Source: an uncultured Fidelibacterota bacterium (lineage in GTDB: Bacteria > Fidelibacterota > Marinisomatia > Marinisomatales > UBA1611). Taken from it: a stretch of 64,000 bases of DNA. The stretch lies in contig CACEUX010000001.1 in NCBI GenBank assembly GCA_902562835.1, positions 10,568-74,567 of the forward strand, read 5' to 3'. The position numbers and the translations under genes were made by a program. Position 1 is the first letter of the stretch, and every line of letters begins with the position of its first letter. Below, one piece after another: positions 37,403 through 49,663 of this stretch. Under the pieces are notes generated by a model that did not search any database, had not been told where the DNA came from, and saw nothing but the letters and a program-made list of their open reading frames with translations.

Positions 37403-37957
37403 TTAAAACCAATCAATAAAACCTGGATAGTGAGGACCATTATTTTCACTAAAAGATTTTGAGCTGTACAACCTTTTAATAGGTATTCCTAACAGTGTAA
37501 GATAGACAGACTGCCCACTCCAGGCCGGTCGGTGGTAGGTCCTGGCGTTAATATCAAACAATCCGTTGTTCATTGGGGAATATTTAAGACCAGCATCCAT
37601 GGCCATGTGTGGTTTCAGGTACATTTCGGACACCCAGAGATCTTGATATGCAGGATTGATCATTACTCCGTGTACTTTTAAATCTGCTCGGAGGTCTTCG
37701 CGTATCTTGTATTCAAATATATTTGAGTATGCGTATGATGATATAGGGACTCCTTTATAAAAAGAAAAGCTTGCAGATAGTCGCTGTTGATGGCTAAACC
37801 GGCTATCTTCTATGTCTTCTTGGCCAAACGAATCTATACCTTCAAAGGAGTCATCGCCAACTGGGTCTGGGTAAACATTCGGTCTAAACTGTGCTGTAAC
37901 CATGGTTGCTACAAAAAAGACCGTGGTTATCACATATGTTTTTAGTGCTTTTTTCAT
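37403..37957 (-). CDS. Hypothetical secreted protein
   Basis: Signal peptide ending ATMVTA-Q, beta-strand-rich; no family recognised. Confidence 0.5.
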   Translation of the reverse strand: MKKALKTYVITTVFFVATMVTAQFRPNVYPDPVGDDSFEGIDSFGQEDIEDSRFSHQQRLSASFSFYKGVPISSYAYSNIFEYKIREDLRADLKVHGVMINPAYQDLWVSEMYLKPHMAMDAGLKYSPMNNGLFDINARTYHRPAWSGQSVYLTLLGIPIKRLYSSKSFSENNGPHYPGFIDWF

Positions 37958-38215
37958 ATGCCCTTTTAGGAATATAATATTTTCTATGTATCTCTAGCAC
38001 TTTATTTTTTTAATTGTTTTTCTGAAAAATTTTTTCAGGTTAACAAATTTTTTGTAAAGTGGTTATTTTTATACAAAATACTAATGTTCTGTTTTTACTG
38101 GAACCGTCTTGTTACTCCTTGTATATTCATATGATGTGCTCATATTGCATAGATTATAAAGTGCGCTCAAAGAGACACTTCATTTAATAATTCACACTAT
38201 ATATACAGAGAAAAA

Positions 38216-39376
38216 ATGGCTGAAGAAAACAACGGGAAGAACTCGTCAATTCCACGTGGTTATTTAACCGAGGATACTAAAGCTCGCCTTGAGTGGGTAA
38301 AAAAATATTCAGGTATTGAACTTGATGATAGCATCAGTGACAAAGCAGAAGATCTACAGGGGATCATTGAAAATCACGTGGGTTTCATGAAGGTACCAAT
38401 GGCTGTTGTGGGCCCTATGTCCTTGCAGGGAAATTATGCAAAAGGTGATTTTTGTGTTCCCATTTGTACGCTTGAGGGCACGCTTGCGATGTCCATGAAT
38501 CGAGGGATGTATGCTTCCTCACTATGCGGAGGAACACAGGTTAAACATTTTAGGCAAGAACTTTCACGCGCTCCTGTGTTTATTTTTAACAATTTAGAAG
38601 AGAGCGCACAGTTTCAAACCTGGTTAAAGCAAAACAAAGAGAAAGTTTCAGCTGCTGCTGAAAGCACAACCAACCACGGGAAAGTATTGAGGATAGACCA
38701 ATACACCGTTCAGAACTATATTGTTCTTGATATAGTAATGGACACAAAAAATGCTGCAGGTCAGAATATGGTCACATTGGCAGCAAAGGTTGCCTGTGAG
38801 CTTATTCGCAAAGAAACCGGATATAATTATTTTTTAGAATCAAATATAAACAGTGATAAAAAGGCATCCGTTAGAAACATGCTCCTTGGTAGAGGACACG
38901 GAGTTACTGCAGAAACAACAATCAAAAACAACGTAATGAAAAAAGTTCTGAAGGTAGACCCCGATGTTCTTTATGAAAACTGGGCATATTATCCGGTTTT
39001 TTCTAGTATGGTTGGTACGCATGGGGTTGCTATTCATGAATCTAATGCGCTTACTGCCATATATTTGGCTACGGGCCAAGATACTGCCTGTGTGGCAGAA
39101 AACAGTATTGCACATTTTGACCTGGAAAAAAGAGGAGACGCTTTGAAGTTCAAACTAACCCTTCCTTCTCTTACGGTTGGAACTGTTGGCGGAGGAACAC
39201 GTCTAAAGATGCAGAGAAACAACTTGGAACTACTAGGATGTGCGGATGGTGAAAACTCTTCTAAAAAACTAGCTGAAATCATAGCTGGTGCAACTCTAGC
39301 GCTAGACATATCTCTTGTTTGTGCAATTGGCTCTCATACTTTTACAGATGCTCACATGAAATATGGTAGAAAGTAA
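38216..39376 (+). CDS. HMG-CoA reductase-like protein (class I type)
   Basis: IENHVG, TLEGTL, NAAGQNMV, SDKK, ATGQD, GTVGGGT, C-terminal His in AHMKY. Confidence 0.88.
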   Translation: MAEENNGKNSSIPRGYLTEDTKARLEWVKKYSGIELDDSISDKAEDLQGIIENHVGFMKVPMAVVGPMSLQGNYAKGDFCVPICTLEGTLAMSMNRGMYASSLCGGTQVKHFRQELSRAPVFIFNNLEESAQFQTWLKQNKEKVSAAAESTTNHGKVLRIDQYTVQNYIVLDIVMDTKNAAGQNMVTLAAKVACELIRKETGYNYFLESNINSDKKASVRNMLLGRGHGVTAETTIKNNVMKKVLKVDPDVLYENWAYYPVFSSMVGTHGVAIHESNALTAIYLATGQDTACVAENSIAHFDLEKRGDALKFKLTLPSLTVGTVGGGTRLKMQRNNLELLGCADGENSSKKLAEIIAGATLALDISLVCAIGSHTFTDAHMKYGRK

Positions 39377-39384
39377 TAATACGT

Positions 39385-40116
39385 ATGGATGTGCTTCAAA
39401 ACCCCAGGTATTCTTATCTTGTGGGCAAGCAGGCCTTTTACTATAAAATATTCAAAGTTTTATTCTATTATTATTCCAAAATTGTATTTACCCTTTATGC
39501 CCCTCTCAAAGTTTTTGGTAGAGAAAACTTACCAGAGGGGTCATTTATTTTTTGCAGTAACCACAACAGCCATATGGACGTTGCGGTTCTTGCAGCATCC
39601 GCAAGGAAAAACTTTAATCACTTTGGAATGTTAGCAGCAAGAGACTACTGGTTTGATAGTTGGATAAAAAGAATGTTAGTAAACACTGTAATGAATTTGG
39701 TCCCCGTAGAACGCAAATCAAGTAAGATACGGAAACTTTCAACAGATGACACCATAAGCCTGTGCAGTTCTTTTATGGATTATGGTCAGCGTTCTTTAAT
39801 AATGTTCCCAGAAGGGACACGAGGTGATCCGGGAAAGGTCCTACCGTTTAAAAAGGGTGCAGCAACTTTTTCAATAAAATTAGACAAGCCTATTCTTCCA
39901 GCTGTGATTTACGGCTCCCATAAAATCTGGCCAAGAGGAAAAATATTTTTTGGTTGGCCTACCAAAATTCATGTTTACATTCTTAATCCAATATACCCAG
40001 GTTCGTTTCTTGAAAGAGCCAACCCCTCTGAAGAAGAAGTTGGTGAAGCAATTGAGAAAATCACTATTCAGCTTGAGAAACAGATAAAGGAAAAGGCGAG
40101 TTTCTTATATGAATAA
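39385..40116 (+). CDS. PlsC-family acyltransferase (candidate DHAP or lysophospholipid acyltransferase)
   Basis: NHNSHMD (HX4D), FPEGTR, PILP. Confidence 0.88.
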   Translation: MDVLQNPRYSYLVGKQAFYYKIFKVLFYYYSKIVFTLYAPLKVFGRENLPEGSFIFCSNHNSHMDVAVLAASARKNFNHFGMLAARDYWFDSWIKRMLVNTVMNLVPVERKSSKIRKLSTDDTISLCSSFMDYGQRSLIMFPEGTRGDPGKVLPFKKGAATFSIKLDKPILPAVIYGSHKIWPRGKIFFGWPTKIHVYILNPIYPGSFLERANPSEEEVGEAIEKITIQLEKQIKEKASFLYE

Positions 40117-41866
40117 AAAGGGGAAATTCTTTGGTGTAAACAACACCAATTGGGGTCACAAGTGGGGTTTTAGGGACTCCGGCTTTATTGTCAATGAAGA
40201 CAGGTCTGTTACTTTTGCAGGAAACCGGTATCCTATCTGTGGGAAAAAACTTTCAAAGTTCATCCCATTTGTTGAGGAGGTGTTAGGTATTGAATTCAAG
40301 ATAAAACCCAAGGTTGAAGAGCTAGACAAAAAACACGTTGATAAAGCTTTTGTAAACCATGATTTTATTAGTGAGCTTCGTTCAAAGTTTGACGAGGATC
40401 GCTTTACTGAAGAAGAGAATGAAAGGTTATTACATAGCCATGGTCAACACTCTACGGACGAGGTGTATAAGGTCTTATATGGCAAGCTTAAAAAGTTCAC
40501 CGACCTTGTCTTTTACATTGAAAGCGAAGAAGAAGCCATTGAATTAATAGAACTAGCAAAGAAACATGATGTTTGCCTTATACCATATGGTGGAGGTACA
40601 AATGTGACAAATGCCTTACGGCCCCCAGAAGATGAGCATAGAATGATTGTCACAGTTGACACAAGAAGGTTAAACAAAATTGAGTCCCTGGACAAAGAGA
40701 ACCTAATGGTCACTGTTCAATCTGGTATAACAGGTAAAGACCTTGAGGAGGCTTTAAACAAGGAGGGGTTTACTGTTGGGCATGAACCTGATAGCTATGA
40801 ATTTTCAACTGTTGGCGGATGGATATCTACTAATGCAGCTGGTACGAAAAAGCACCGTTATGGAAACATAGAAGACATTGTACAAAATCTTACAATGGTC
40901 ACGCCCTCTGGAACAATTAACCAGATCAAACCACTCACAAGGTCATCTATTGGTATAAAAGCCCAAAACATCCTTTTTGGATCCGAAGGAAACTTGGGCA
41001 TCATAACCAAGGCTACTTTAAAAATGCATCGCTTACCAGAAAAGTCTTCTTATGAATCAATTGTACTTAGTGATTGGCAAACTGGTGTTCAGTTCATGCA
41101 AGACCTATCTCGCTCTAACATGGTTCCAGCCAGTTCTCGATTGGCGGACAACCTACAAATACGCCTTGGCCAGGCGCTGAAAGAAGAAAAAAGCGGGCTT
41201 CCTAAGCTTCTTGATAAGTTTAAACAGTTTGTTCTTTTTAAAGTGAAGGGATTTGACCCAGAAAAATTTACCGTGGCAGTATTTAAGATAGAAGGTTCTG
41301 AGGTAGAGGTAAAAACTCAAAGACAAAACCTTGAAAATCTAGCGAAAAAGCATCGTGGTGTCCTTGCCGGTGAAAGCACTGGAAAAAGTGGGTATTTGGC
41401 AACAATGGTAATTGCCTACATAAGGGAGTTGATCTTTACGCAAAACATTCTTGGCGAAACAATGGAAACTGCTGTCCCTTGGTCAAAAATCAACCAGGTA
41501 AAAGAAGAAGCTTCAAAGCTAATTGTAAAACTACACAAGGAGCACAACCTCCCAGGAAAACCTTTTTTTACATCAAGAATTTCAAAGGTATATCACACGG
41601 GTGTTTGTATGTACAACACAATAGCAATGTGTTATGATGGAGTAGAAAACCCTGAAGATGTTTTTACAGAAATCGAACATATTATGAGAGAAAACTTTAT
41701 AGAGAATGGTGGGTCAATATCACACCATCATGGAGTCGGAAAGCTAAGAAAAGACTTTATGTCAAACACAATATCTGAGGGTAGTGTTGAAATGATAAAG
41801 GGCATAAAAAAAAATCAAGACCCTCACAATATTTTTGGAGTAAACAACAACATTGTAATGGACTAG
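40109..41866 (+). CDS. Alkyl-dihydroxyacetonephosphate synthase (AGPS-like FAD oxidase)
   Basis: WGFRDS, HSHG, PYGGGTNV, GHEPDSYEFSTVGGWIST, YGNIED, GSEG, VIAYIR, GGSISHHHGVG. Confidence 0.9.
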   Translation: MNKKGKFFGVNNTNWGHKWGFRDSGFIVNEDRSVTFAGNRYPICGKKLSKFIPFVEEVLGIEFKIKPKVEELDKKHVDKAFVNHDFISELRSKFDEDRFTEEENERLLHSHGQHSTDEVYKVLYGKLKKFTDLVFYIESEEEAIELIELAKKHDVCLIPYGGGTNVTNALRPPEDEHRMIVTVDTRRLNKIESLDKENLMVTVQSGITGKDLEEALNKEGFTVGHEPDSYEFSTVGGWISTNAAGTKKHRYGNIEDIVQNLTMVTPSGTINQIKPLTRSSIGIKAQNILFGSEGNLGIITKATLKMHRLPEKSSYESIVLSDWQTGVQFMQDLSRSNMVPASSRLADNLQIRLGQALKEEKSGLPKLLDKFKQFVLFKVKGFDPEKFTVAVFKIEGSEVEVKTQRQNLENLAKKHRGVLAGESTGKSGYLATMVIAYIRELIFTQNILGETMETAVPWSKINQVKEEASKLIVKLHKEHNLPGKPFFTSRISKVYHTGVCMYNTIAMCYDGVENPEDVFTEIEHIMRENFIENGGSISHHHGVGKLRKDFMSNTISEGSVEMIKGIKKNQDPHNIFGVNNNIVMD

Positions 41867-41888
41867 GTGAAATGTTGAGACCTGTATT

Positions 41889-42698
41889 ATGTTATTAAAA
41901 GAAAAAGTATTCATCGTAACCGGAGCGTCTTCAGGAATTGGAGAAGAGCTTTGTAAGCAACTTTCTGCTAGTGGCTCAACCGTTGTTTGTGCCGCAAGAA
42001 GGCTAGATGAGCTTGAACGCGTCTCTGATATAATAAATTCATCTGGGGGCAAATCAATTGCTGTTCAAACGGACATAACCATAATTGAGCAGTGTAATAG
42101 AATGATAGAGAAAACAATTGAAACATTTGGCCAAATTGATGGACTTGTTCTAAACGCGGGCGTCAGCATGTGGGCAAGATTTGAAGATATCGCAGATATT
42201 AGTTTTTTTAAAGATCTGATTAACACAAATTATCTTGGCGCTGTAAACTGCGTGCATGCAGCTCTTCCTTATTTAAAAAAATCAAATGGAAAAATAATAA
42301 GCTGCTCAACAGGTCAGGCGCTCATGGGGTTTCCTAGTCATTCTGGCTATGCAGCATCAAAACATGCTCTTCATGGGTTTTTGTCAACCTTAGCTATAGA
42401 AAACAAAAACGAAATAACAATTTTAGAAGCTATCCTTGGCTGGATACGAGATACTAATCTTCGTGGCAATGCGTTTGGGGCAGATGGGAAAAAACATTCA
42501 AGACCACCAAAGAAACATACAAAAGAATCTGTGGGACTCAATAATTGTGTTGAAAGAATTCTAACTGCGATGAAGAATGATTGGCGAACTGTGTATATCC
42601 CTCGCAAGTTACGCTTAATACCTTTTTACAAGGCCTTTTGGAGGTGGTATTTAGAATACCGGGCAGATCGAGTTGTTAAGAAACCAGCTAAGGGCTAG
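41889..42698 (+). CDS. Short-chain dehydrogenase/reductase (DHRS7B-like)
   Basis: TGASSGIG, ARR, NAG, YAASK. Confidence 0.88.
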   Translation: MLLKEKVFIVTGASSGIGEELCKQLSASGSTVVCAARRLDELERVSDIINSSGGKSIAVQTDITIIEQCNRMIEKTIETFGQIDGLVLNAGVSMWARFEDIADISFFKDLINTNYLGAVNCVHAALPYLKKSNGKIISCSTGQALMGFPSHSGYAASKHALHGFLSTLAIENKNEITILEAILGWIRDTNLRGNAFGADGKKHSRPPKKHTKESVGLNNCVERILTAMKNDWRTVYIPRKLRLIPFYKAFWRWYLEYRADRVVKKPAKG

Positions 42699-42735
42699 TC
42701 GTGTCAGAGGCCTTACCTCTTAATAAGGGTTAAAC

Positions 42736-43542
42736 ATGATTCAAAAAGTCCTTGTTTGGTTTATACAGTTTGGGCCATCAACAAAACGATGGTTTTGGCG
42801 AAAATGGTATAACGCATTTGCTAACAAATCAAAAGACCATTCATTCCGATTTATGAACTATGGGTATGCAGAGGATGGATTTAATCCAGAAATACCAGAA
42901 GAGGACAAAGCGGAACGTTATCCTCTTCAATTATACCACCACACCTCAACACAAATTGAACTGTCGGGTAAAAAACTACTAGAAGTTGGTTGCGGGCGTG
43001 GGGGTGGAGCCTCCTATGTCCAACGTCAACTTAAAACAGAGTCTGTTGTTGGGATGGACATCTCTGAGAGCGCAATTAGACTTTGTAAATCTTCACACGA
43101 AATAGATCGGTTAGAGTTTATTGTTGGCGACTCAGAAAATATTCCCTTTGAAAAAGAAACATTCGACGCTGTTTTGAATGTTGAATCCTCTCATTGCTAT
43201 GGAAACCTTACTGCCTTTCTTTCTGAGGTTCAGAGAGTTTTAAACCCAGGGGGGTTTTTGTTGTGGTGTGATTTTAGATCTCACAATGAAATGAAAAAGT
43301 TTTTTAAACTTGCTGATGATGTGGGCCTAACCCTGATTAACCAAACAGACATTACTAAAAACATATTAGACGCCCTTGATCTTTTGACACCAGGACGTAA
43401 AAAGCAAATTGACACTCACGTCCCTAAAATAATTCGAAACGTGTTTAAGTCTTACGCGGGATTGCGGGGAAGCAGTGTTCATAATGCGTTTTTAGCTGGA
43501 GAGCTTGTTTATAAAAGCTCAGTGTTTCAAAAGGAGACATAG
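42736..43542 (+). CDS. SAM-dependent methyltransferase resembling mycobacterial lipid O-methyltransferases
   Basis: FMNYGY, YPLQLYH, LEVGCGRGGGASY, FDAVLNVESSHCY. Confidence 0.8.
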   Translation: MIQKVLVWFIQFGPSTKRWFWRKWYNAFANKSKDHSFRFMNYGYAEDGFNPEIPEEDKAERYPLQLYHHTSTQIELSGKKLLEVGCGRGGGASYVQRQLKTESVVGMDISESAIRLCKSSHEIDRLEFIVGDSENIPFEKETFDAVLNVESSHCYGNLTAFLSEVQRVLNPGGFLLWCDFRSHNEMKKFFKLADDVGLTLINQTDITKNILDALDLLTPGRKKQIDTHVPKIIRNVFKSYAGLRGSSVHNAFLAGELVYKSSVFQKET

Positions 43543-43544
43543 GA

Positions 43545-44822
43545 TTGAGAACTTTTTGTGGTTTAATATTTTTTATATCCACGCTTCAAGCTCAATTAAC
43601 CATCTTGCATTGTGGGGTATTAATAGATGGGTATTCTAGTAAACCAAAAAAAGTGGTCTCTATCATAATTCAGGAATCTACTATCATTGACATAGCAGAT
43701 GGATATGTGGACCCCGGTGATGGAGATGTTTTTTTTGACCTTAATCAATACACTGTTCTTCCTGGGCTGATGGATATGCACGTGCACCTTTCTGGTGAAT
43801 CGAATCCAAAAAGGTATATGGAACGATTCACAATGGACCTTGATGACTATGCTTACAGGTCAATTAAATACGCTGAACGCACACTAATGGCTGGCTTTAC
43901 CACAGTAAGAGACCTTGGTGGACCAGTAAACACCTCTTTAAGGGATGCAATTAATAACGACTTTTTGATTGGTCCAAGGATCTACAGCGCGGGAAAGTCA
44001 ATAGCAACAACTGGGGGTCACTCAGACCCCACCAACGGTATGAGTTTTGAACTAATGGGAGACCCGGGTCCTAATAAAGGGGTCGTAAATGGTGTTCCAG
44101 AATCAAGGAAGGCTGTTAGGCAGCGATATAAAAACGGTGCAGACCTCATAAAGATAACAGCAACTGGTGGCGTGTTGAGCGTAGCGAAAAGCGGAGAGAA
44201 CCCTCAATTTAAAGAAGATGAGATCCGAGCTATTGTTGAGACAGCTGCTGATTATGATATGCATGTAGCAGCACATGCTCATGGAGCAGAGGGAATGAAG
44301 CGGGCAGTTCGAGCTGGTGTCCGCTCAATCGAGCACGGTACACTCATGGATGAAGAAACTATAGAACTAATGAAAAATAGGGGCACATATTATGTTCCTA
44401 CAATATCTGCTGGCGAATTTGTAGCGGAGAAGGCACTTATAGATGGCTACTATCCTGAGGTAGTTCGGCCTAAGGCAAAAAAGATTGGCCCCAAAATAAA
44501 AGAAACATTTAAGAAGGCTTATGATGCTGGTATACCTATTGCTTTTGGGACAGATTCTGGAGTTTCTTACCATGGTGAAAATGCGAGAGAATTTACCTAT
44601 ATGGTAGAAGCCGGAATGTTGCCAATGGAAGCAATTCAATCCGCTACAAAAACAGCGTCTGAGCTCTTGGAGATAAATGAGTTTTTAGGGCTAATAAAAA
44701 TCAACATGTTAGCAGACATCATTGCTGTAGGCGGTGAGCCTCTAAAAGATATATCAGCCTTAGAGAATGTAGTGTTTGTAATGAAAAATGGTGTTGTATA
44801 TAAAGGTGTGGGAGAAAAATGA
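43545..44822 (+). CDS. Secreted amidohydrolase (Xaa-Pro dipeptidase-like)
   Basis: PGLMDMHVH, GFTTVRDLG, IKITATGG, AHAHG, SIEHG, FGTDSG. Confidence 0.88.
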   Translation: MRTFCGLIFFISTLQAQLTILHCGVLIDGYSSKPKKVVSIIIQESTIIDIADGYVDPGDGDVFFDLNQYTVLPGLMDMHVHLSGESNPKRYMERFTMDLDDYAYRSIKYAERTLMAGFTTVRDLGGPVNTSLRDAINNDFLIGPRIYSAGKSIATTGGHSDPTNGMSFELMGDPGPNKGVVNGVPESRKAVRQRYKNGADLIKITATGGVLSVAKSGENPQFKEDEIRAIVETAADYDMHVAAHAHGAEGMKRAVRAGVRSIEHGTLMDEETIELMKNRGTYYVPTISAGEFVAEKALIDGYYPEVVRPKAKKIGPKIKETFKKAYDAGIPIAFGTDSGVSYHGENAREFTYMVEAGMLPMEAIQSATKTASELLEINEFLGLIKINMLADIIAVGGEPLKDISALENVVFVMKNGVVYKGVGEK

Positions 44823-46228
44823 ACCTTAATAAAAAAGAACTAGAAACCTCAATTAATAAGTTTTGGGATGACAGTATCGTCCCAACGCTTATCGAATACA
44901 TTAAAATTCCAAACAAGTCACCATCTTTTGATCCAGATTGGAAAAGAAATGGGCACATGGATAAGGTTCTTGTAATGGCAGTGGAGTGGGCAAAAAAACA
45001 CATGCCGGAGGAGGCTGAATTAACAACGAAAGAAAGCCCGGGCAGAACACCAATTATTTTAATTGATGTCCCAGGTGAAACGGATGGAAACATCCTTATG
45101 TATGGTCATTTAGATAAGCAGCCTGAAATGGACGGTTGGGATGGCGACTTGGGTCCATGGACCCCCGTTATTAAAGAAAACAAATTATTTGGTCGAGGTG
45201 GTGCTGATGATGGGTATGCCTTGTTTGCATCCTTATCTGCAATAAGATCTCTTAAGGAGCAAGGGGCAAAAACTCCTCGAATATTAATTTTAATAGAGTT
45301 TTGTGAAGAAAGCGGCTCTCCTGACCTACCCCACTATATAGAAAGTTGTGAAAACCTAATTGGAGCCCCCGATTTAGTGATCTGTTTGGATTCAGGTGCG
45401 GGAGACTATAATCGTTTTTGGACAACAACCTCACTTAGGGGGTTGATTGGTTGCTCTCTAAAAGTTGAGGTCTTAAAAGAGGGCGTCCATTCTGGTGGCG
45501 CCAGTGGGCATGTTCCATCATCTTTTAGGGTTGCCAGACAACTTCTCTCTAGGCTAGAAAATGAAAAAACAGGTGAAATAAGTCTCGCAGAGCTGAACAC
45601 CAATATCCCAGAACACAGAATAGTAGAAACAGAAAAACTTGTTAGCATCCTTGGAGACGAAGTTGTAAATGAATTTCCCTGGAGGGGCGACATGCAGCCA
45701 TCTACGGACAACAATGTTGAGGGGGTACTACGAAGAACATGGTTACCAAGCCTTTCGGTTGTTGGTGCCGGTGGATTACCACCTTCAAACAATGCTGGGA
45801 ATGTATTGCGACCTTATACACAATTACAGCTTTCCATAAGGATTCCTCCTTTAGTAAACCACCTCAAGGCTCAAGAGGCAATTGGGGAAGCGTTGACAAA
45901 AAACCCACCTTACAATGCAAAAGTGACTGTTTCTTTTGATGAGCCTGCATCTGGTTGGAACGCTCCAGAAACGGTTGCATGGTTGGCCTCATCAATAAAA
46001 AGTGCATCCAGGAGTTATTATGGCGAAGATGCATGCTCAATAAGTGAGGGTGGAACAATACCTTTCATGGCAATGCTGGGTGAACGATTTCCCAAGGCGC
46101 AGTTTGTTATCACTGGGGTTTTGGGTCCGGGCTCAAACGCACATGGACCAAATGAGTTTCTACATATTCCATATGCTAAAAAACTAACAGCCTGTATAGC
46201 ATCAATCATCAACGACTTCCCAAGCTGA
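44819..46228 (+). CDS. M20 family metallopeptidase
   Basis: YGHLDKQP, GRGGADDG, EESGS, HSG, NAHGPNE. Confidence 0.9.
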   Translation: MNLNKKELETSINKFWDDSIVPTLIEYIKIPNKSPSFDPDWKRNGHMDKVLVMAVEWAKKHMPEEAELTTKESPGRTPIILIDVPGETDGNILMYGHLDKQPEMDGWDGDLGPWTPVIKENKLFGRGGADDGYALFASLSAIRSLKEQGAKTPRILILIEFCEESGSPDLPHYIESCENLIGAPDLVICLDSGAGDYNRFWTTTSLRGLIGCSLKVEVLKEGVHSGGASGHVPSSFRVARQLLSRLENEKTGEISLAELNTNIPEHRIVETEKLVSILGDEVVNEFPWRGDMQPSTDNNVEGVLRRTWLPSLSVVGAGGLPPSNNAGNVLRPYTQLQLSIRIPPLVNHLKAQEAIGEALTKNPPYNAKVTVSFDEPASGWNAPETVAWLASSIKSASRSYYGEDACSISEGGTIPFMAMLGERFPKAQFVITGVLGPGSNAHGPNEFLHIPYAKKLTACIASIINDFPS

Positions 46229-46235
46229 ATCTGTT

Positions 46236-47087
46236 TTGATCAGAACCTACTTGATTCTCCTGTTGGCTCTGGTCTCTGTTAGCTCATCATCTCTAGTTGT
46301 AAGATATGCTGCTTCTGTTCCCGCTGTTACATTGGCCTTTTGGAGAATGTTTTTAGCAAGCGGAATGCTGTGGGTTTATAGCATAAAAAAAACTGAGTCT
46401 CTTTCAAAGAAAAACAGAACTAGAGTTGTATTCGCAGGTCTGTTCTTGGGTCTTCATTTTATATTCTTTTTTATTGGTGTTCGGGAGGTTTCTGTTGCAA
46501 ATGCTACGCTATTAGCCAATACGGGTCCATTTTTTACCGCTCTTTTTTCTATTGCTGTTAGAAAACCTATTCATAGATATGCCTTTTTAGGTCTTGTTTG
46601 TGCAATGGTTGGAATTTTGGTTGTACAGGGCTCTGAGCTAGACACGATTATGCAAAACTTTTACGGAAATTTCTTTTCTTTATTAAGTGGGGTGTGTATT
46701 GCCATTACATATGTTTTTGCTTCTAAAATACGGAAAAATACAAGCAATGTTATATATGGTCGTTCGTTATTTTTGGTCGCTGCTTTAACCATTGCACTTG
46801 TCGCAATTATTTTTGCTGTTCCTTTATTTGGTTTCAGCCTTGAACACTTCTGTTGGTTTCTGTTCTTGGGCCTTGTTCCAACAGTTTTGGGACACAACGT
46901 ATTAAACTATGTAATTAAGTATTTGACACCCACAGCCGTTGCCTCTGTGCCCCTTGGGGAGCCAGTTATCGCTTCTGTTTTTGCTTATTTTCTTTTTTCA
47001 GAGCTTATTCCCGTGAATGCATATTTTGGTGCACCATTTATTTTTATAGGCATATATTTGATTTTAAAGAACTCGTCTAGCAGGTAA
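46236..47087 (+). CDS. DMT/EamA family transporter
   Basis: About 10 TM helices, LAFWR, SVANATLL, GHN, LGEPV. Confidence 0.85.
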   Translation: MIRTYLILLLALVSVSSSSLVVRYAASVPAVTLAFWRMFLASGMLWVYSIKKTESLSKKNRTRVVFAGLFLGLHFIFFFIGVREVSVANATLLANTGPFFTALFSIAVRKPIHRYAFLGLVCAMVGILVVQGSELDTIMQNFYGNFFSLLSGVCIAITYVFASKIRKNTSNVIYGRSLFLVAALTIALVAIIFAVPLFGFSLEHFCWFLFLGLVPTVLGHNVLNYVIKYLTPTAVASVPLGEPVIASVFAYFLFSELIPVNAYFGAPFIFIGIYLILKNSSSR

Positions 47088-47090
47088 GGC

Positions 47091-47852
47091 TTACTCTTCG
47101 CTTAAGGCTTTAAAATATGGTTGAGGTTTTGGCGTTATAAGGTTTTCTTTTTGGTATTTAAAAACTTCCGCGCTTTCACTAAATGGGCCCTGCCTGCCTG
47201 GAGGCAATAGCGCAGCTATCCGACACATCATTTCATTACCAACCGCATTTAAGGCCTTAACTTTTTGTCCCTTATTGCCTTTTATATTAAATGGCCCAAA
47301 CGGCTTTCCAATATTAATACAAATACGAGAGCGGATACCCTTAAACATTCCCTCCCATGCCCTTTCAGCCCCATAAATGCCAATTGGAACTATGGGTGCT
47401 TTTCCAAGCGTTGAGAGATAAACTGCGCCATTTTTTGGTTGGCTTAGCAGGTTATAACTAACCCCACCATCTGGAAAAATTCCCAACAGCCCCCCCCTTC
47501 TTAAAACCTCAAGGGATCTTTTAATTGTGGATGGAGAGAGATTTTGCCTATTAACTGGTATCCAGCCGTATATAATGGGAGCCCATACAAGCCACCAATC
47601 AAGTTCTTGGTCACTTGCTGCTATAAAATTGATAGGTTTTTGGATTCCGTAACTAAAAAATAAGGGGTCATAGTCACTAAAGTGATTACTGGCTATAACA
47701 TAGGGACCTTTTTTTGGTAGGTGGTATTTACCCCTTACAGAAACACGAGCAATTCCTGAGCCTAAAAATAATGCGACATAAGTTAACAGGTATCTAATTA
47801 TATGTGGTTTGGGGGAAAGCGATGATAAAAATTCAGGTCCAAACTTTTTCAT
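47091..47852 (-). CDS. 1-acyl-sn-glycerol-3-phosphate acyltransferase (PlsC family)
   Basis: NHFSDYD, IFPDGG, PIVPIGIYG; ATG at 47852 preferred because it avoids overlap with ssb. Confidence 0.82.
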   Translation of the reverse strand: MKKFGPEFLSSLSPKPHIIRYLLTYVALFLGSGIARVSVRGKYHLPKKGPYVIASNHFSDYDPLFFSYGIQKPINFIAASDQELDWWLVWAPIIYGWIPVNRQNLSPSTIKRSLEVLRRGGLLGIFPDGGVSYNLLSQPKNGAVYLSTLGKAPIVPIGIYGAERAWEGMFKGIRSRICINIGKPFGPFNIKGNKGQKVKALNAVGNEMMCRIAALLPPGRQGPFSESAEVFKYQKENLITPKPQPYFKALSEE

Positions 47853-47868
47853 TAAGACTGTCTGTTTT

Positions 47869-48255
47869 TTAAAAAGGAAGGTCGTCGTCGTCACTTACCG
47901 CGGGCTGGTTAGGTTGCGCCCCAGCTTGTTGTCCCCCACCCTGTTGGGAACCTCCCATCAATTCAACGTTGTTTACAAAAACTCTTAAGCTTGCACCGCC
48001 AGTACCATCTTTTTTTTCATATTGATTAAGGGATATTTCTCCTTCAACCACTACTTGCTGCCCTTTTACCATGTAATCTTTAAGCCCACCCTCGGCTCTT
48101 TTGCCGAATAGGGAGCACTCAAAATAGTGTGTTTTTTGATTGTCACCAAAACCAGTATTGTTTGCAACACTAAAAGACATAACCGGAGTACCGCTAGGAA
48201 TAAAGCGCACCTCAGCATCTCGGGTTAACCTACCACTAATAATTAATTTGTTCAT
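47869..48255 (-). CDS. ssb: Single-stranded DNA-binding protein
   Basis: MNKLIISGRLTRD, KGQQVVVEG, acidic tail DDDDLPF. Confidence 0.95.
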   Translation of the reverse strand: MNKLIISGRLTRDAEVRFIPSGTPVMSFSVANNTGFGDNQKTHYFECSLFGKRAEGGLKDYMVKGQQVVVEGEISLNQYEKKDGTGGASLRVFVNNVELMGGSQQGGGQQAGAQPNQPAVSDDDDLPF

Positions 48256-48325: not shown

Positions 48326-49663
48326 CTAAAAAGAGTATCCCAGTTCTTGTTTGACCACACTAAGCATATTTTTTATTCTTGTGTCACTTTCTATTTTATT
48401 GGTAATGGTGTTTACGGCGTGTATCACTGTTGTATGGTCTCTGCCACCAAAAAACAAACCAATATTATTTAAAGACGTGCCTATGATCTCTCTGCTCAAA
48501 TACATTGAAACCTGCCGAGCATCAGAGATTTCACTTTTACGGCTTTTTCCAACGATTTCGTCTTCAGATATAGAAGAGATATTAGACACTTTTTGTATAA
48601 TATCCTCCATGGATATATCACTGTTTAAGCGACCCCCGGTTCTTTCTTGCACGACCTCTCTGACGAGGCTGTGGTCAATTTCTTTGTTCATCAGGGAAGA
48701 CTTAGCCAGAATCCTGATTATTGTGCCCTCGAGGTCTCTTACATTGTTTTTGACGTGCCTTGCTATAAACTCGATAATATCATAATCTAGCGTCAGTCCA
48801 TTTTGTTCAGCTTTTTCTAGGAGTATAGCAACCCTGACCTCAAAGTTTGGGGGCTGTACGTCAACGGACAAACCAGACTCAAAGCGGGAAAGAAGCCTGT
48901 CTTGCAACCCTTTCATTTCACCTGGATATTTATCTGCAGTCATTACAATTTGTTTTCCAGCTTGATGTAGAGCGTTAAAGGTGTGAAAAAACTGTTCTTG
49001 AGTCTGTTCTTTACCTCTAAAAAACTGAATATCATCAATCAGAAGAACGTCTGCCTTTCTGTATTTCTGAGCAAACTCAATGGTCTTGTTTTTTCTTAGG
49101 CCGTTCACAAAGTCGAGTGTGAATTTTTCGCTTGTAACTATTACAACATTAAGACTGTTATTAAGCTCAACCGCTCGGTTTCCAATGGCATGCATTATGT
49201 GGGTTTTACCCAGGCCGACACCGCCATATATAATCAAAGGATTAAATCCGTTTTCTCCTGGATTGTTTGCAACCGACAGGGCAGCGTTTTTTGCAAACTC
49301 ATTGTTTCCGCCCTCAATAAAGTTGTCGAACCTGTATAGTTTGTTAATGTTGTTTTGGTGAAGCGCCTTTGGTCGTTGTTGTGGTGTTGTGGCACTATCT
49401 GTGGCTATCTTCGAGGGGTTGCTATTTATAACGAACTTGAAGCCATAGTCCATGCCGCCAATTGAATTAAGCGAGGATTCGAGCTCCTTTTCATAGTGCG
49501 ATTCTATCCACTCTGCGAAAAACTGATTCGGTACCTCTAATAATATTTTATTATCAGAGAGGCCTATTGGCTCCACTGGCTCAAACCATGCGCTGAGGGC
49601 GTGCCCAGGCAGCTGGGCCTTAAGATACGATAGCGCCTCAGTCCATATCTGATTATGGCTCAT
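48326..49663 (-). CDS. dnaA: Chromosomal replication initiator DnaA
   Basis: FNPLIIYGGVGLGKTH, LLIDDIQF, QEQFFHTFN, GGRDHTTVIHA. Confidence 0.98.
   Translation of the reverse strand: MSHNQIWTEALSYLKAQLPGHALSAWFEPVEPIGLSDNKILLEVPNQFFAEWIESHYEKELESSLNSIGGMDYGFKFVINSNPSKIATDSATTPQQRPKALHQNNINKLYRFDNFIEGGNNEFAKNAALSVANNPGENGFNPLIIYGGVGLGKTHIMHAIGNRAVELNNSLNVVIVTSEKFTLDFVNGLRKNKTIEFAQKYRKADVLLIDDIQFFRGKEQTQEQFFHTFNALHQAGKQIVMTADKYPGEMKGLQDRLLSRFESGLSVDVQPPNFEVRVAILLEKAEQNGLTLDYDIIEFIARHVKNNVRDLEGTIIRILAKSSLMNKEIDHSLVREVVQERTGGRLNSDISMEDIIQKVSNISSISEDEIVGKSRKSEISDARQVSMYLSREIIGTSLNNIGLFFGGRDHTTVIHAVNTITNKIESDTRIKNMLSVVKQELGYSF

Follow-up and report, generated by a model that had tools for sequence, protein, structure and literature searches.

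The window analysed here is a 64,000-nucleotide stretch of contig CACEUX010000001.1 from an uncultured Fidelibacterota bacterium (assembly GCA_902562835.1), and our subject is a run of five plus-strand open reading frames (ORFs) at 38216-43542 whose first four genes are predicted to direct the synthesis of alkyl ether lipids. The first ORF (38216-39376, 386 aa) encodes a homologue of class-I HMG-CoA reductase (HMGR; HMG-CoA_red, PF00368, 326.1 bits) that is probably a fatty acyl-CoA reductase of the FcrA type. It is followed by a PlsC-family acyltransferase with an HX4D box (39385-40116, 243 aa; Acyltransferase, PF01553, 73.6 bits), an alkylglycerone-phosphate synthase (AGPS; 40109-41866, 585 aa; FAD_binding_4, 126.6 bits, and FAD-oxidase_C, 104.8 bits), a classical short-chain dehydrogenase/reductase (SDR; 41889-42698, 269 aa; adh_short, 150.3 bits) and an S-adenosylmethionine-dependent methyltransferase related to lipid O-methyltransferases (42736-43542, 268 aa; Methyltransf_11, 75.5 bits). 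The genes are tightly packed, with 8 nt between the first two, an 8-nt overlap of acyltransferase and AGPS (40109-40116), and gaps of 22 and 37 nt thereafter in the ORF list of the window. An earlier, sequence-only reading of this DNA had described five co-oriented, nearly abutting genes with that same overlap, and the ORF coordinates and Pfam matches agree with it on both counts. The assembly spans 1.84 Mb in 97 contigs at a completeness of 77.7%, so that absences of genes from it are weak evidence.

The oxidase is an AGPS orthologue

In a search of solved structures, the third protein matched guinea-pig AGPS (4bby) over query residues 15-580 with 446.6 bits and an E-value of 1.4e-132, and Dictyostelium AGPS (2uuu) with 285.9 bits. 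The sequence-only reading had named a grouping with D-lactate or glycolate dehydrogenases as the outcome that would overturn its AGPS assignment; the best flavoenzyme outside the AGPS family, LctD, reached 89.9 bits against the 446.6 of the guinea-pig enzyme, and every motif that had been likened to animal AGPS is visible in the alignment with the latter. R344, Y502 and H539-H541 of the window protein align with Arg419, Tyr578 and His615-617 of the guinea-pig enzyme, which from the structural literature we take to be the catalytic residues of AGPS. They are invariant in 18 of 18 aligned sequences, and the deposited variant sequence 4bca departs from the wild type at the Tyr position. By these comparisons the oxidase is a genuine AGPS orthologue, with EC 2.5.1.26 as its predicted activity.

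AGPS also occurs as part of larger proteins elsewhere. Diatoms, other stramenopiles and dinoflagellates have proteins of 2000-2700 aa that combine AGPS, a canonical fatty acyl-CoA reductase (FAR) and acyltransferase, and several shorter proteins comprise AGPS and acyltransferase only. Among P0148-P0239 are proteins of 2000-2900 aa from the same algal and protist groups in which an ACBP domain accompanies AGPS, FAR and acyltransferase, often together with a DegT-type aminotransferase and an epimerase domain. The joining of AGPS, FAR and acyltransferase in single proteins ties these three activities together.

Four genes form the conserved unit

We fetched 36 loci with an AGPS gene, of which 30 extend at least 2 kb upstream and 30 at least 900 nt downstream of it. 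The closest are metagenome-assembled genomes (MAGs) and single-cell genomes, labelled, where a taxon is given, as Candidatus Neomarinimicrobiota, Marinimicrobia or Marinisomatales. In 27 of the 30 loci with enough upstream sequence, AGPS is directly preceded by the HMGR-like gene and the acyltransferase, and the SDR lies downstream in 27 of 30 (26 called by script, plus L015). The exceptions are the same three on both sides, namely L021, L033 (Anaerolineae) and L036 (Ardenticatenaceae), in which AGPS sits amid unrelated genes. A survey of synteny had been proposed with the sequence-only reading, and this recurrence shows that the arrangement is not due to chance. The conserved unit is thus made of four genes, reductase, acyltransferase, AGPS and SDR, at 38216-42698.

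The same linkage appears across an even set of 401 Marinimicrobia genomes. An AGPS match at an E-value of 1e-60 or better is found in 81 of them, 72 with at least 46% identity and the other nine with paralogues only. The HMGR-like gene is present in 71 genomes, and a tally of both tables gives 70 with both genes. In 67 of these 70, a single contig carries both AGPS and the HMGR-like gene and nothing but the acyltransferase lies between, and the remaining three (G167, G263 and G279) are contig-end cases; in G279, the HMGR-like gene stops 19 nt before the end of its contig and the acyltransferase begins at the end of another. Two genomes have AGPS without the HMGR-like gene, G188, in which AGPS starts 650 nt from a contig end, and G196, to which we return below. 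Only G136 has the HMGR-like gene without AGPS.

The G136 gene is itself divergent (G136:C243:110-1237, 39% identity), lies in an open frame of 514 aa and resembles in length the N-terminally extended forms of the Chloroflexota loci L047 and L048. In another genome, the HMGR-like match is in two pieces (G278:C14:27321-28788; query residues 5-249 and 269-385), possibly through a frameshift or an assembly error. The nine genomes with AGPS paralogues only (G018, G238, G169, G277, G110, G338, G166, G002 and G242) lack the HMGR-like gene; their paralogues are 28-32% identical to the window AGPS, and one sits in a 1126-aa open frame. A blastp screen at 30% identity would count such paralogues as Agps, which bears on the Agps homologues reported for 49 of 134 Black Sea Marinisomatota MAGs at a blastp threshold of at least 30% identity (PMC11868695), a count that would include paralogues.

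The HMGR-like protein is probably a fatty acyl-CoA reductase

The first protein of the operon is the only PF00368 gene product that a profile search finds in its genome. Although it matches the archaeal HMGR structure 6hr7 with 225.4 bits, it reaches only 271.9 bits against the HMGR equivalog model of NCBI (TIGR00533), whose cut-off is 441.8. Alignment to human HMGR shows the catalytic residues E87, D214, K215, D289 and H380 to be kept, of which E87, K215, D289 and H380 correspond to human Glu559, Lys691, Asp767 and His866. The pocket is changed at three positions: human S684 is replaced by Glu208, K735 by Tyr258/259 and L862 by Phe376.

FcrA, an HMGR-related fatty acyl-CoA reductase found in wax-ester synthesis, is reported to combine such features (PMC11948995, Grossi et al. 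2025, ISME J). Glu559, Lys691, Asp767 and His866 of the catalytic site are all retained, and section 19 of that paper describes a pocket in which Ser684 is replaced by Glu, a universally conserved Lys mostly by small residues and Leu862 by bulky ones. The corresponding signature, acidic, non-Lys, and Trp or Phe, is present in all 29 homologues from our loci, 27 from Marinimicrobia and two from Chloroflexota (513-521 aa), with the proviso that the truncated L048 ends before the two C-terminal positions (L862 and H866). It is also present in 120 of 120 longer relatives among the matches listed, and in 47 of these a fatty-acid-activating (AMP-binding) domain is part of the protein. The window protein consists of the catalytic domain alone and shares about 40% identity with the Lad-type homologue of L047 (Chloroflexota). 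Given these residues, the best reading of the HMGR-like protein is a fatty acyl-CoA reductase of the FcrA type, which would yield a fatty alcohol.

Its likeness to FcrA comprises the class-I HMGR fold, the catalytic Glu, Lys, Asp and His, an acidic residue at Ser684, loss of the Lys and an aromatic residue at Leu862. In the genome, IspG and IspH of the methylerythritol phosphate (MEP) pathway are present; of the mevalonate pathway, a search for the C-terminal domain of HMG-CoA synthase (PF08540) found none at 77.7% completeness. The window protein differs from FcrA in having no N-terminal Lad or ACP domain, and in its Tyr, rather than a small residue, at the position of the lost Lys. Grossi et al. 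considered it possible that some FcrA enzymes supply alcohols for ether lipids, and their paper notes that an AGPS gene lies nine genes away from Pb-FcrA, an assayed enzyme, and that fcrA of Coxiella has a PlsC-like gene as its neighbour (PMC11948995). Unlike Pb-FcrA with its distant AGPS, the window reductase gene opens a compact operon with AGPS.

Among the longer proteins with the FcrA signature, many of about 780-920 aa (among P0046-P0144) carry an APH or EcKL-type phosphotransferase domain as well; Streptomyces, Rhodococcus, Nocardia and Moritella are among their sources. A few others are fused to DUF3419 or an epimerase domain. The fusion of reductase and kinase hints that the alcohol product may be phosphorylated.

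A canonical FAR takes the same slot in G196

G196 belongs to the same class as the window organism and is 94% complete. Among the AGPS genomes that lack the HMGR-like gene, it alone has its locus away from a contig edge. Its operon has overlapping genes in the same order, FAR, acyltransferase, AGPS and SDR, and the last three are 40%, 47% and 43% identical, respectively, to their counterparts in the window. The first is a canonical FAR of 563 aa (PF07993, 219 bits, with the PF03015 Sterile domain), and it holds the exact operon slot of the HMGR-like gene. Of all the arguments for the HMGR-like enzyme as the source of the fatty alcohol, we take this exchange to be the strongest. This FAR was found in one of the 401 sampled genomes, G196 itself. 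The genome of the window has five weak PF07993 matches (best 37.4 bits); the family has matches in all 14 control genomes, so its presence does not discriminate.

An acyltransferase that may act on dihydroxyacetone phosphate

The operon acyltransferase has an HX4D box (H60..D65) and an FPEG-R block, neither of which varies across 16 of 16 aligned homologues. Among longer proteins, its nearest relatives combine AMP-binding, ACP, FAR and acyltransferase domains, the architecture of ElbD from the myxobacterial elbB-elbE cluster, in which FadD, ACP, FAR and acyltransferase form one protein; the top five score 95-105 bits at 29-34% identity in BLASTP. In the window these activities would be on separate genes, and, unlike in the Elb route, which has no AGPS according to the available part of a recent preprint (bioRxiv 10.1101/2025.10.10.681575), AGPS is present. 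One further candidate for an ElbD, a 1535-aa AMP-binding ORF on contig C19 (L050:2186-6793, minus strand; G000), was rejected: it has an AMP-binding domain (residues 98-632) and a GNAT domain (1422-1523), about 800 residues between them without a Pfam match, and no reductase or PF01553 domain.

We infer, only from the position of its gene between the reductase and AGPS, that the operon acyltransferase makes 1-acyl-dihydroxyacetone phosphate (1-acyl-DHAP). The sequence-only reading had drawn a parallel to the eukaryotic enzyme GNPAT, which we could not sustain. Beyond the shared PF01553 HX4D core there is no detectable similarity to GNPAT-type domains, including those fused to AGPS in eukaryotes: BLASTP at an E-value of 1e-3 or better matches none of a set of 95 fusion proteins with AGPS, the majority of them with PF01553, and the only GPAT_C-containing match is P0023, at 2e-4.

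These results leave room for another role, in which the protein is a dedicated PlsC-like sn-2 enzyme that converts 1-alkyl-glycerol-3-phosphate to 1-alkyl-2-acyl-phosphatidate, with 1-acyl-DHAP coming from elsewhere. The best solved relative is PlsC of T. maritima (5kym, 62.8 bits), the best NCBIfam match is a 1-acylglycerol-3-phosphate acyltransferase domain model, the GNPAT-type domains fused to AGPS go unmatched, and the genome holds four other PF01553 genes. Against this stand the 8-nt overlap with AGPS, the place of the gene between reductase and AGPS, its conservation with AGPS in 27 of 30 loci and a position like that of the FAR-acyltransferase fusions found alongside AGPS in myxobacteria (bioRxiv 10.1101/2025.10.10.681575); moreover, no other candidate source of acyl-DHAP was identified. 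We regard the sn-2 role as unlikely, and 1-acyl-DHAP synthesis as the better reading.

A second PlsC-family gene lies at 47091-47894 on the minus strand, convergent with the plus-strand run (PF01553, 69.3 bits). Its product is 27% identical to the operon acyltransferase, and it is syntenic in part of the related loci only. On the ElbD-type set it scores 34-62 bits, a biased comparison given that the set was chosen with the operon acyltransferase as query. The suggestion in the sequence-only reading that this gene could provide housekeeping acylation proved unfounded, as the genome has five PF01553 genes in all; a role as sn-2 acyltransferase is possible. PlsY was not found in the 77.7% complete genome. 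A complex prediction for AGPS and the operon acyltransferase scored 0.03 against a mark of 0.32, which says nothing on binding, and look-ups of the acyltransferase and the SDR in the ESM Atlas returned generic acyltransferase and SDR clusters only.

The SDR belongs to the unit and the methyltransferase probably does not

The translation of the SDR shows the features of the classical family, a glycine-rich motif for NAD(P) and the catalytic Ser, Tyr and Lys; NAG and YxxxK are present, and two Arg residues in a row follow the second strand. It exceeds the cut-off of an uninformative model (NF004825, 222.6 against 215), and PDB searches with it and with the methyltransferase returned generic relatives only. 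What ties the SDR to AGPS is their conserved adjacency and one natural AGPS-SDR fusion, P0147 (1027 aa), to residues 774-997 of which the window SDR is 30% identical. It would be a 1-alkyl-DHAP (or acyl-DHAP) reductase, EC 1.1.1.101.

The best family matches of the methyltransferase are mycobacterial lipid O-methyltransferases, both below cut-off: the phthiotriol dimycocerosate methyltransferase model NF045823 (231.3, cut-off 300) and the fatty-acid O-methyltransferase Mtf2 model NF045825 (216.6, cut-off 400). Together with the position of the gene, 37 nt past the SDR on the same strand, these matches would suit an integral fifth step that leads to an O-methylated ether lipid or a related methylated lipid, as the five-gene model of the sequence-only reading had it. 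The family is also more frequent where AGPS occurs: of the 86 genomes among the 401 that encode it, 47 are among the 72 with AGPS and 39 among the 329 without. This enrichment is confounded by shared ancestry, however, and the family's occurrence in genomes without AGPS itself speaks against the five-gene model. Furthermore, the methyltransferase directly follows the SDR in only 10 of the 26 cluster loci with enough downstream sequence, and in most operon-bearing genomes its homologue is far off or on another contig (for example, G047, G209, G241, G240 and G207). A fifth step is therefore improbable, and we treat the methyltransferase as a lineage-specific neighbour whose membership in the pathway is doubtful.

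Genomic surroundings

The tight co-oriented run continues for three genes past the methyltransferase, with gaps of 2, -4 and 7 nt, through an amidohydrolase resembling Xaa-Pro dipeptidase (43545-44822, plus strand; 391.7 bits, cut-off 500), an M20 peptidase (44819-46228, plus strand) and an EamA transporter (46236-47087, plus strand). These genes may be co-transcribed, and the trio is syntenic in part of the related loci only. The flanks are of a housekeeping kind, with genes for pyruvate kinase, ApaG, an M28 peptidase, an SLT transglycosylase and a PD40 protein upstream, and SSB (47869-48255, minus strand) and DnaA (48326-49663, minus strand) downstream. The GC content of the operon, 0.38-0.40, equals that of the flanks. 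The operon lies within a few kilobases of dnaA and possibly of a replication origin; the cumulative GC skew has its minimum at about 26-34 kb of the window.

Upstream, a 258-nt intergenic region (37958-38215), bounded by ORFs, is likely to hold the promoter of the operon. It is common to a divergent 184-aa ORF (37403-37957, minus strand) that has no Pfam or NCBIfam match and is kept at the same position in the closest relatives only (52-95% identity in L006, L008, L009, L016 and L035). The best sigma-70-like match is at 37951-37978, with 10 of 12 positions, and serves as a position only, as the scan as a whole did no better than shuffled sequence (24 promoter-like sites against 26.3 expected, and eight terminator-like sites against 9.8). 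The boundaries of the operon are thus drawn from spacing and synteny only. RNA contigs of 151-260 nt with identities from 90 to more than 99% cover parts of the reductase, acyltransferase, AGPS and SDR genes in three of four marine metatranscriptome libraries from two studies; none of those listed spans a gene junction and carry-over of DNA is possible, so they are not evidence of transcription or co-transcription.

A proposed route to 1-O-alkyl glycerolipids

Eukaryotes make alkylglycerol lipids by way of acyl-DHAP (GNPAT), alkyl-DHAP (AGPS with a fatty alcohol) and an SDR reductase (DHRS7B/Ayr1). We propose, with a confidence of about 75%, that the four-gene operon at 38216-42698 encodes this DHAP route to 1-O-alkyl glycerolipids, with the alcohol coming from the FcrA-type reductase. 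That enzyme would carry out the four-electron reduction of a fatty acyl-CoA, at the expense of two NADPH, to a fatty alcohol. The small PlsC-type acyltransferase would provide 1-acyl-DHAP, in which AGPS would exchange the acyl group for the alcohol, forming the ether bond. The SDR would then reduce the ketone to 1-O-alkyl-sn-glycerol-3-phosphate, which would enter ordinary phospholipid synthesis. The computations show the families of AGPS and of the FcrA-like reductase, the conservation of the operon and the equivalence of the reductase slot to that of FAR. Which substrates the acyltransferase and the SDR use, what donates the acyl group and which lipid results are inferred. The sequence-only reading had claimed a complete alkyl-ether route for the cluster; alcohol supply, acylation, alkyl exchange and ketone reduction are indeed plausibly encoded, and only the O-methyltransferase drops out as not integral. 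The plasmalogen desaturase CarF/PEDS1 was not found in the 77.7% complete genome, the control genomes being silent too, and this weak evidence suggests that the product would be a plasmanyl (alkyl) lipid rather than a vinyl ether.

Several points weigh against the proposal. Every enzyme activity in it is a prediction, for an uncultured organism. The assignment of the reductase to FcrA is made by a residue signature rather than by a tree that includes an assayed FcrA, and at the position of human K735 most Marinimicrobia have Tyr or Phe, as opposed to the generally small residues published for FcrA. FcrA needs acyl-CoA, yet only two AMP-binding candidates were seen in the genome. The operon acyltransferase may, as discussed, acylate 1-alkyl-glycerol-3-phosphate rather than DHAP, and its want of a match to the AGPS fusion proteins counts on the same side. 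The genomes counted are kin, so the counts overstate independence, and the absences of HMG-CoA synthase, WS/DGAT and CarF carry little weight at this completeness.

A different destination for the products, in which the fatty alcohol and alkyl-DHAP go into neutral ether lipids, wax esters or a signalling lipid instead of bulk phospholipids, could draw on the discovery of FcrA in wax-ester synthesis (PMC11948995) and on the lack of Pfam-recognizable head-group enzymes in the operon. We consider it quite improbable: WS/DGAT (PF03007) was not found in the 77.7% complete genome, where the control genomes were silent as well, and in all systems described in the available parts of three sources the AGPS products are phospholipid precursors (bioRxiv 10.1101/2025.10.10.681575, bioRxiv 10.64898/2026.06.23.733905 and PMC11868695). 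That the first gene is a bona fide HMGR (EC 1.1.1.34) beside lipid genes by coincidence, as its HMG-CoA_red score and its match to 6hr7 could suggest, is close to refuted by a score below the equivalog cut-off, replacement of the HMG-binding Ser684, Lys735 and Leu862, the MEP genes together with an HMG-CoA synthase that went unfound in the 77.7% complete genome, AGPS in 70 of the 71 genomes with the gene and the FAR in its place in G196.

Relation to known systems and implications

The closest bacterial parallel to the proposed DHAP route is the M. xanthus operon MXAN_1674-1676, which encodes a FAR-GNPAT fusion, an NAD-dependent protein and an AGPS for which experiments have shown a part in the synthesis of ether lipids (bioRxiv 10.1101/2025.10.10.681575). 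Both operons set AGPS beside a reductase for the alcohol, an acyltransferase and a protein of the NAD(P)-dependent reductase kind. In the window, however, the reductase is an HMGR homologue in place of a FAR, the acyltransferase (243 aa) is encoded on its own and does not resemble GNPAT in sequence, the fourth gene encodes a classical SDR and not an epimerase-family protein, and CarF/PEDS1 was not found, a weak negative. The same four chemical steps are proposed as in the animal peroxisomal pathway (FAR1, GNPAT, AGPS and DHRS7B), with AGPS as the one clear orthologue; the reductase is non-homologous to FAR, the acyltransferase is again not GNPAT-like, there is no organelle, and PEDS1 was not found.

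Much of this ground has been published: bacterial AGPS operons, FcrA, the proposed link between FcrA and ether lipids, and Agps matches in Marinisomatota, to which agps homologues in Acidobacteriota, Poribacteria and Latescibacterota can be added (bioRxiv 10.64898/2026.06.23.733905). The operon is thus a variant of a known bacterial and eukaryotic pathway and not a new kind of system. In the published literature we found neither the tight reductase, acyltransferase, AGPS and SDR operon in Marinimicrobia nor the exchange of FAR and FcrA; the supplementary tables of PMC11948995, PMC11868695 and bioRxiv 10.1101/2025.10.10.681575 may list the genes.

Three things give the finding its value: a reductase of non-homologous origin, a host phylum of ecological weight and a proposal that is easily tested. 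Because FcrA and a canonical FAR share an operon slot in related genomes, it is the cleanest comparative evidence so far for an FcrA that feeds AGPS, earlier only a possibility in Grossi et al. 2025, and it would show the logic of the peroxisomal pathway assembled in bacteria out of non-homologous parts. The operon is small, self-contained and movable to E. coli, which makes the ether-lipid question directly testable.

Non-isoprenoid alkyl glycerol ethers serve as biomarkers, and their marine producers are poorly constrained. The dark ocean holds abundant Marinimicrobia (SAR406), a phylum that is essentially uncultured; Fidelibacter multiformis is a cultured member. As a tentative extension, which we hold possible but would not bet on, the operon-bearing pelagic Marinimicrobia (72 of 401 genomes) may use 1-O-alkyl glycerophospholipids for a substantial share of their membranes, and the phylum may be a main, as yet unassigned source of marine non-isoprenoid monoalkyl glycerol ethers in water columns and sediments. 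Ether lipids, and not wax esters, would then be the principal role of stand-alone marine FcrA, and where the methyltransferase has joined the operon, an O-methylated derivative might serve as a clade-specific biomarker.

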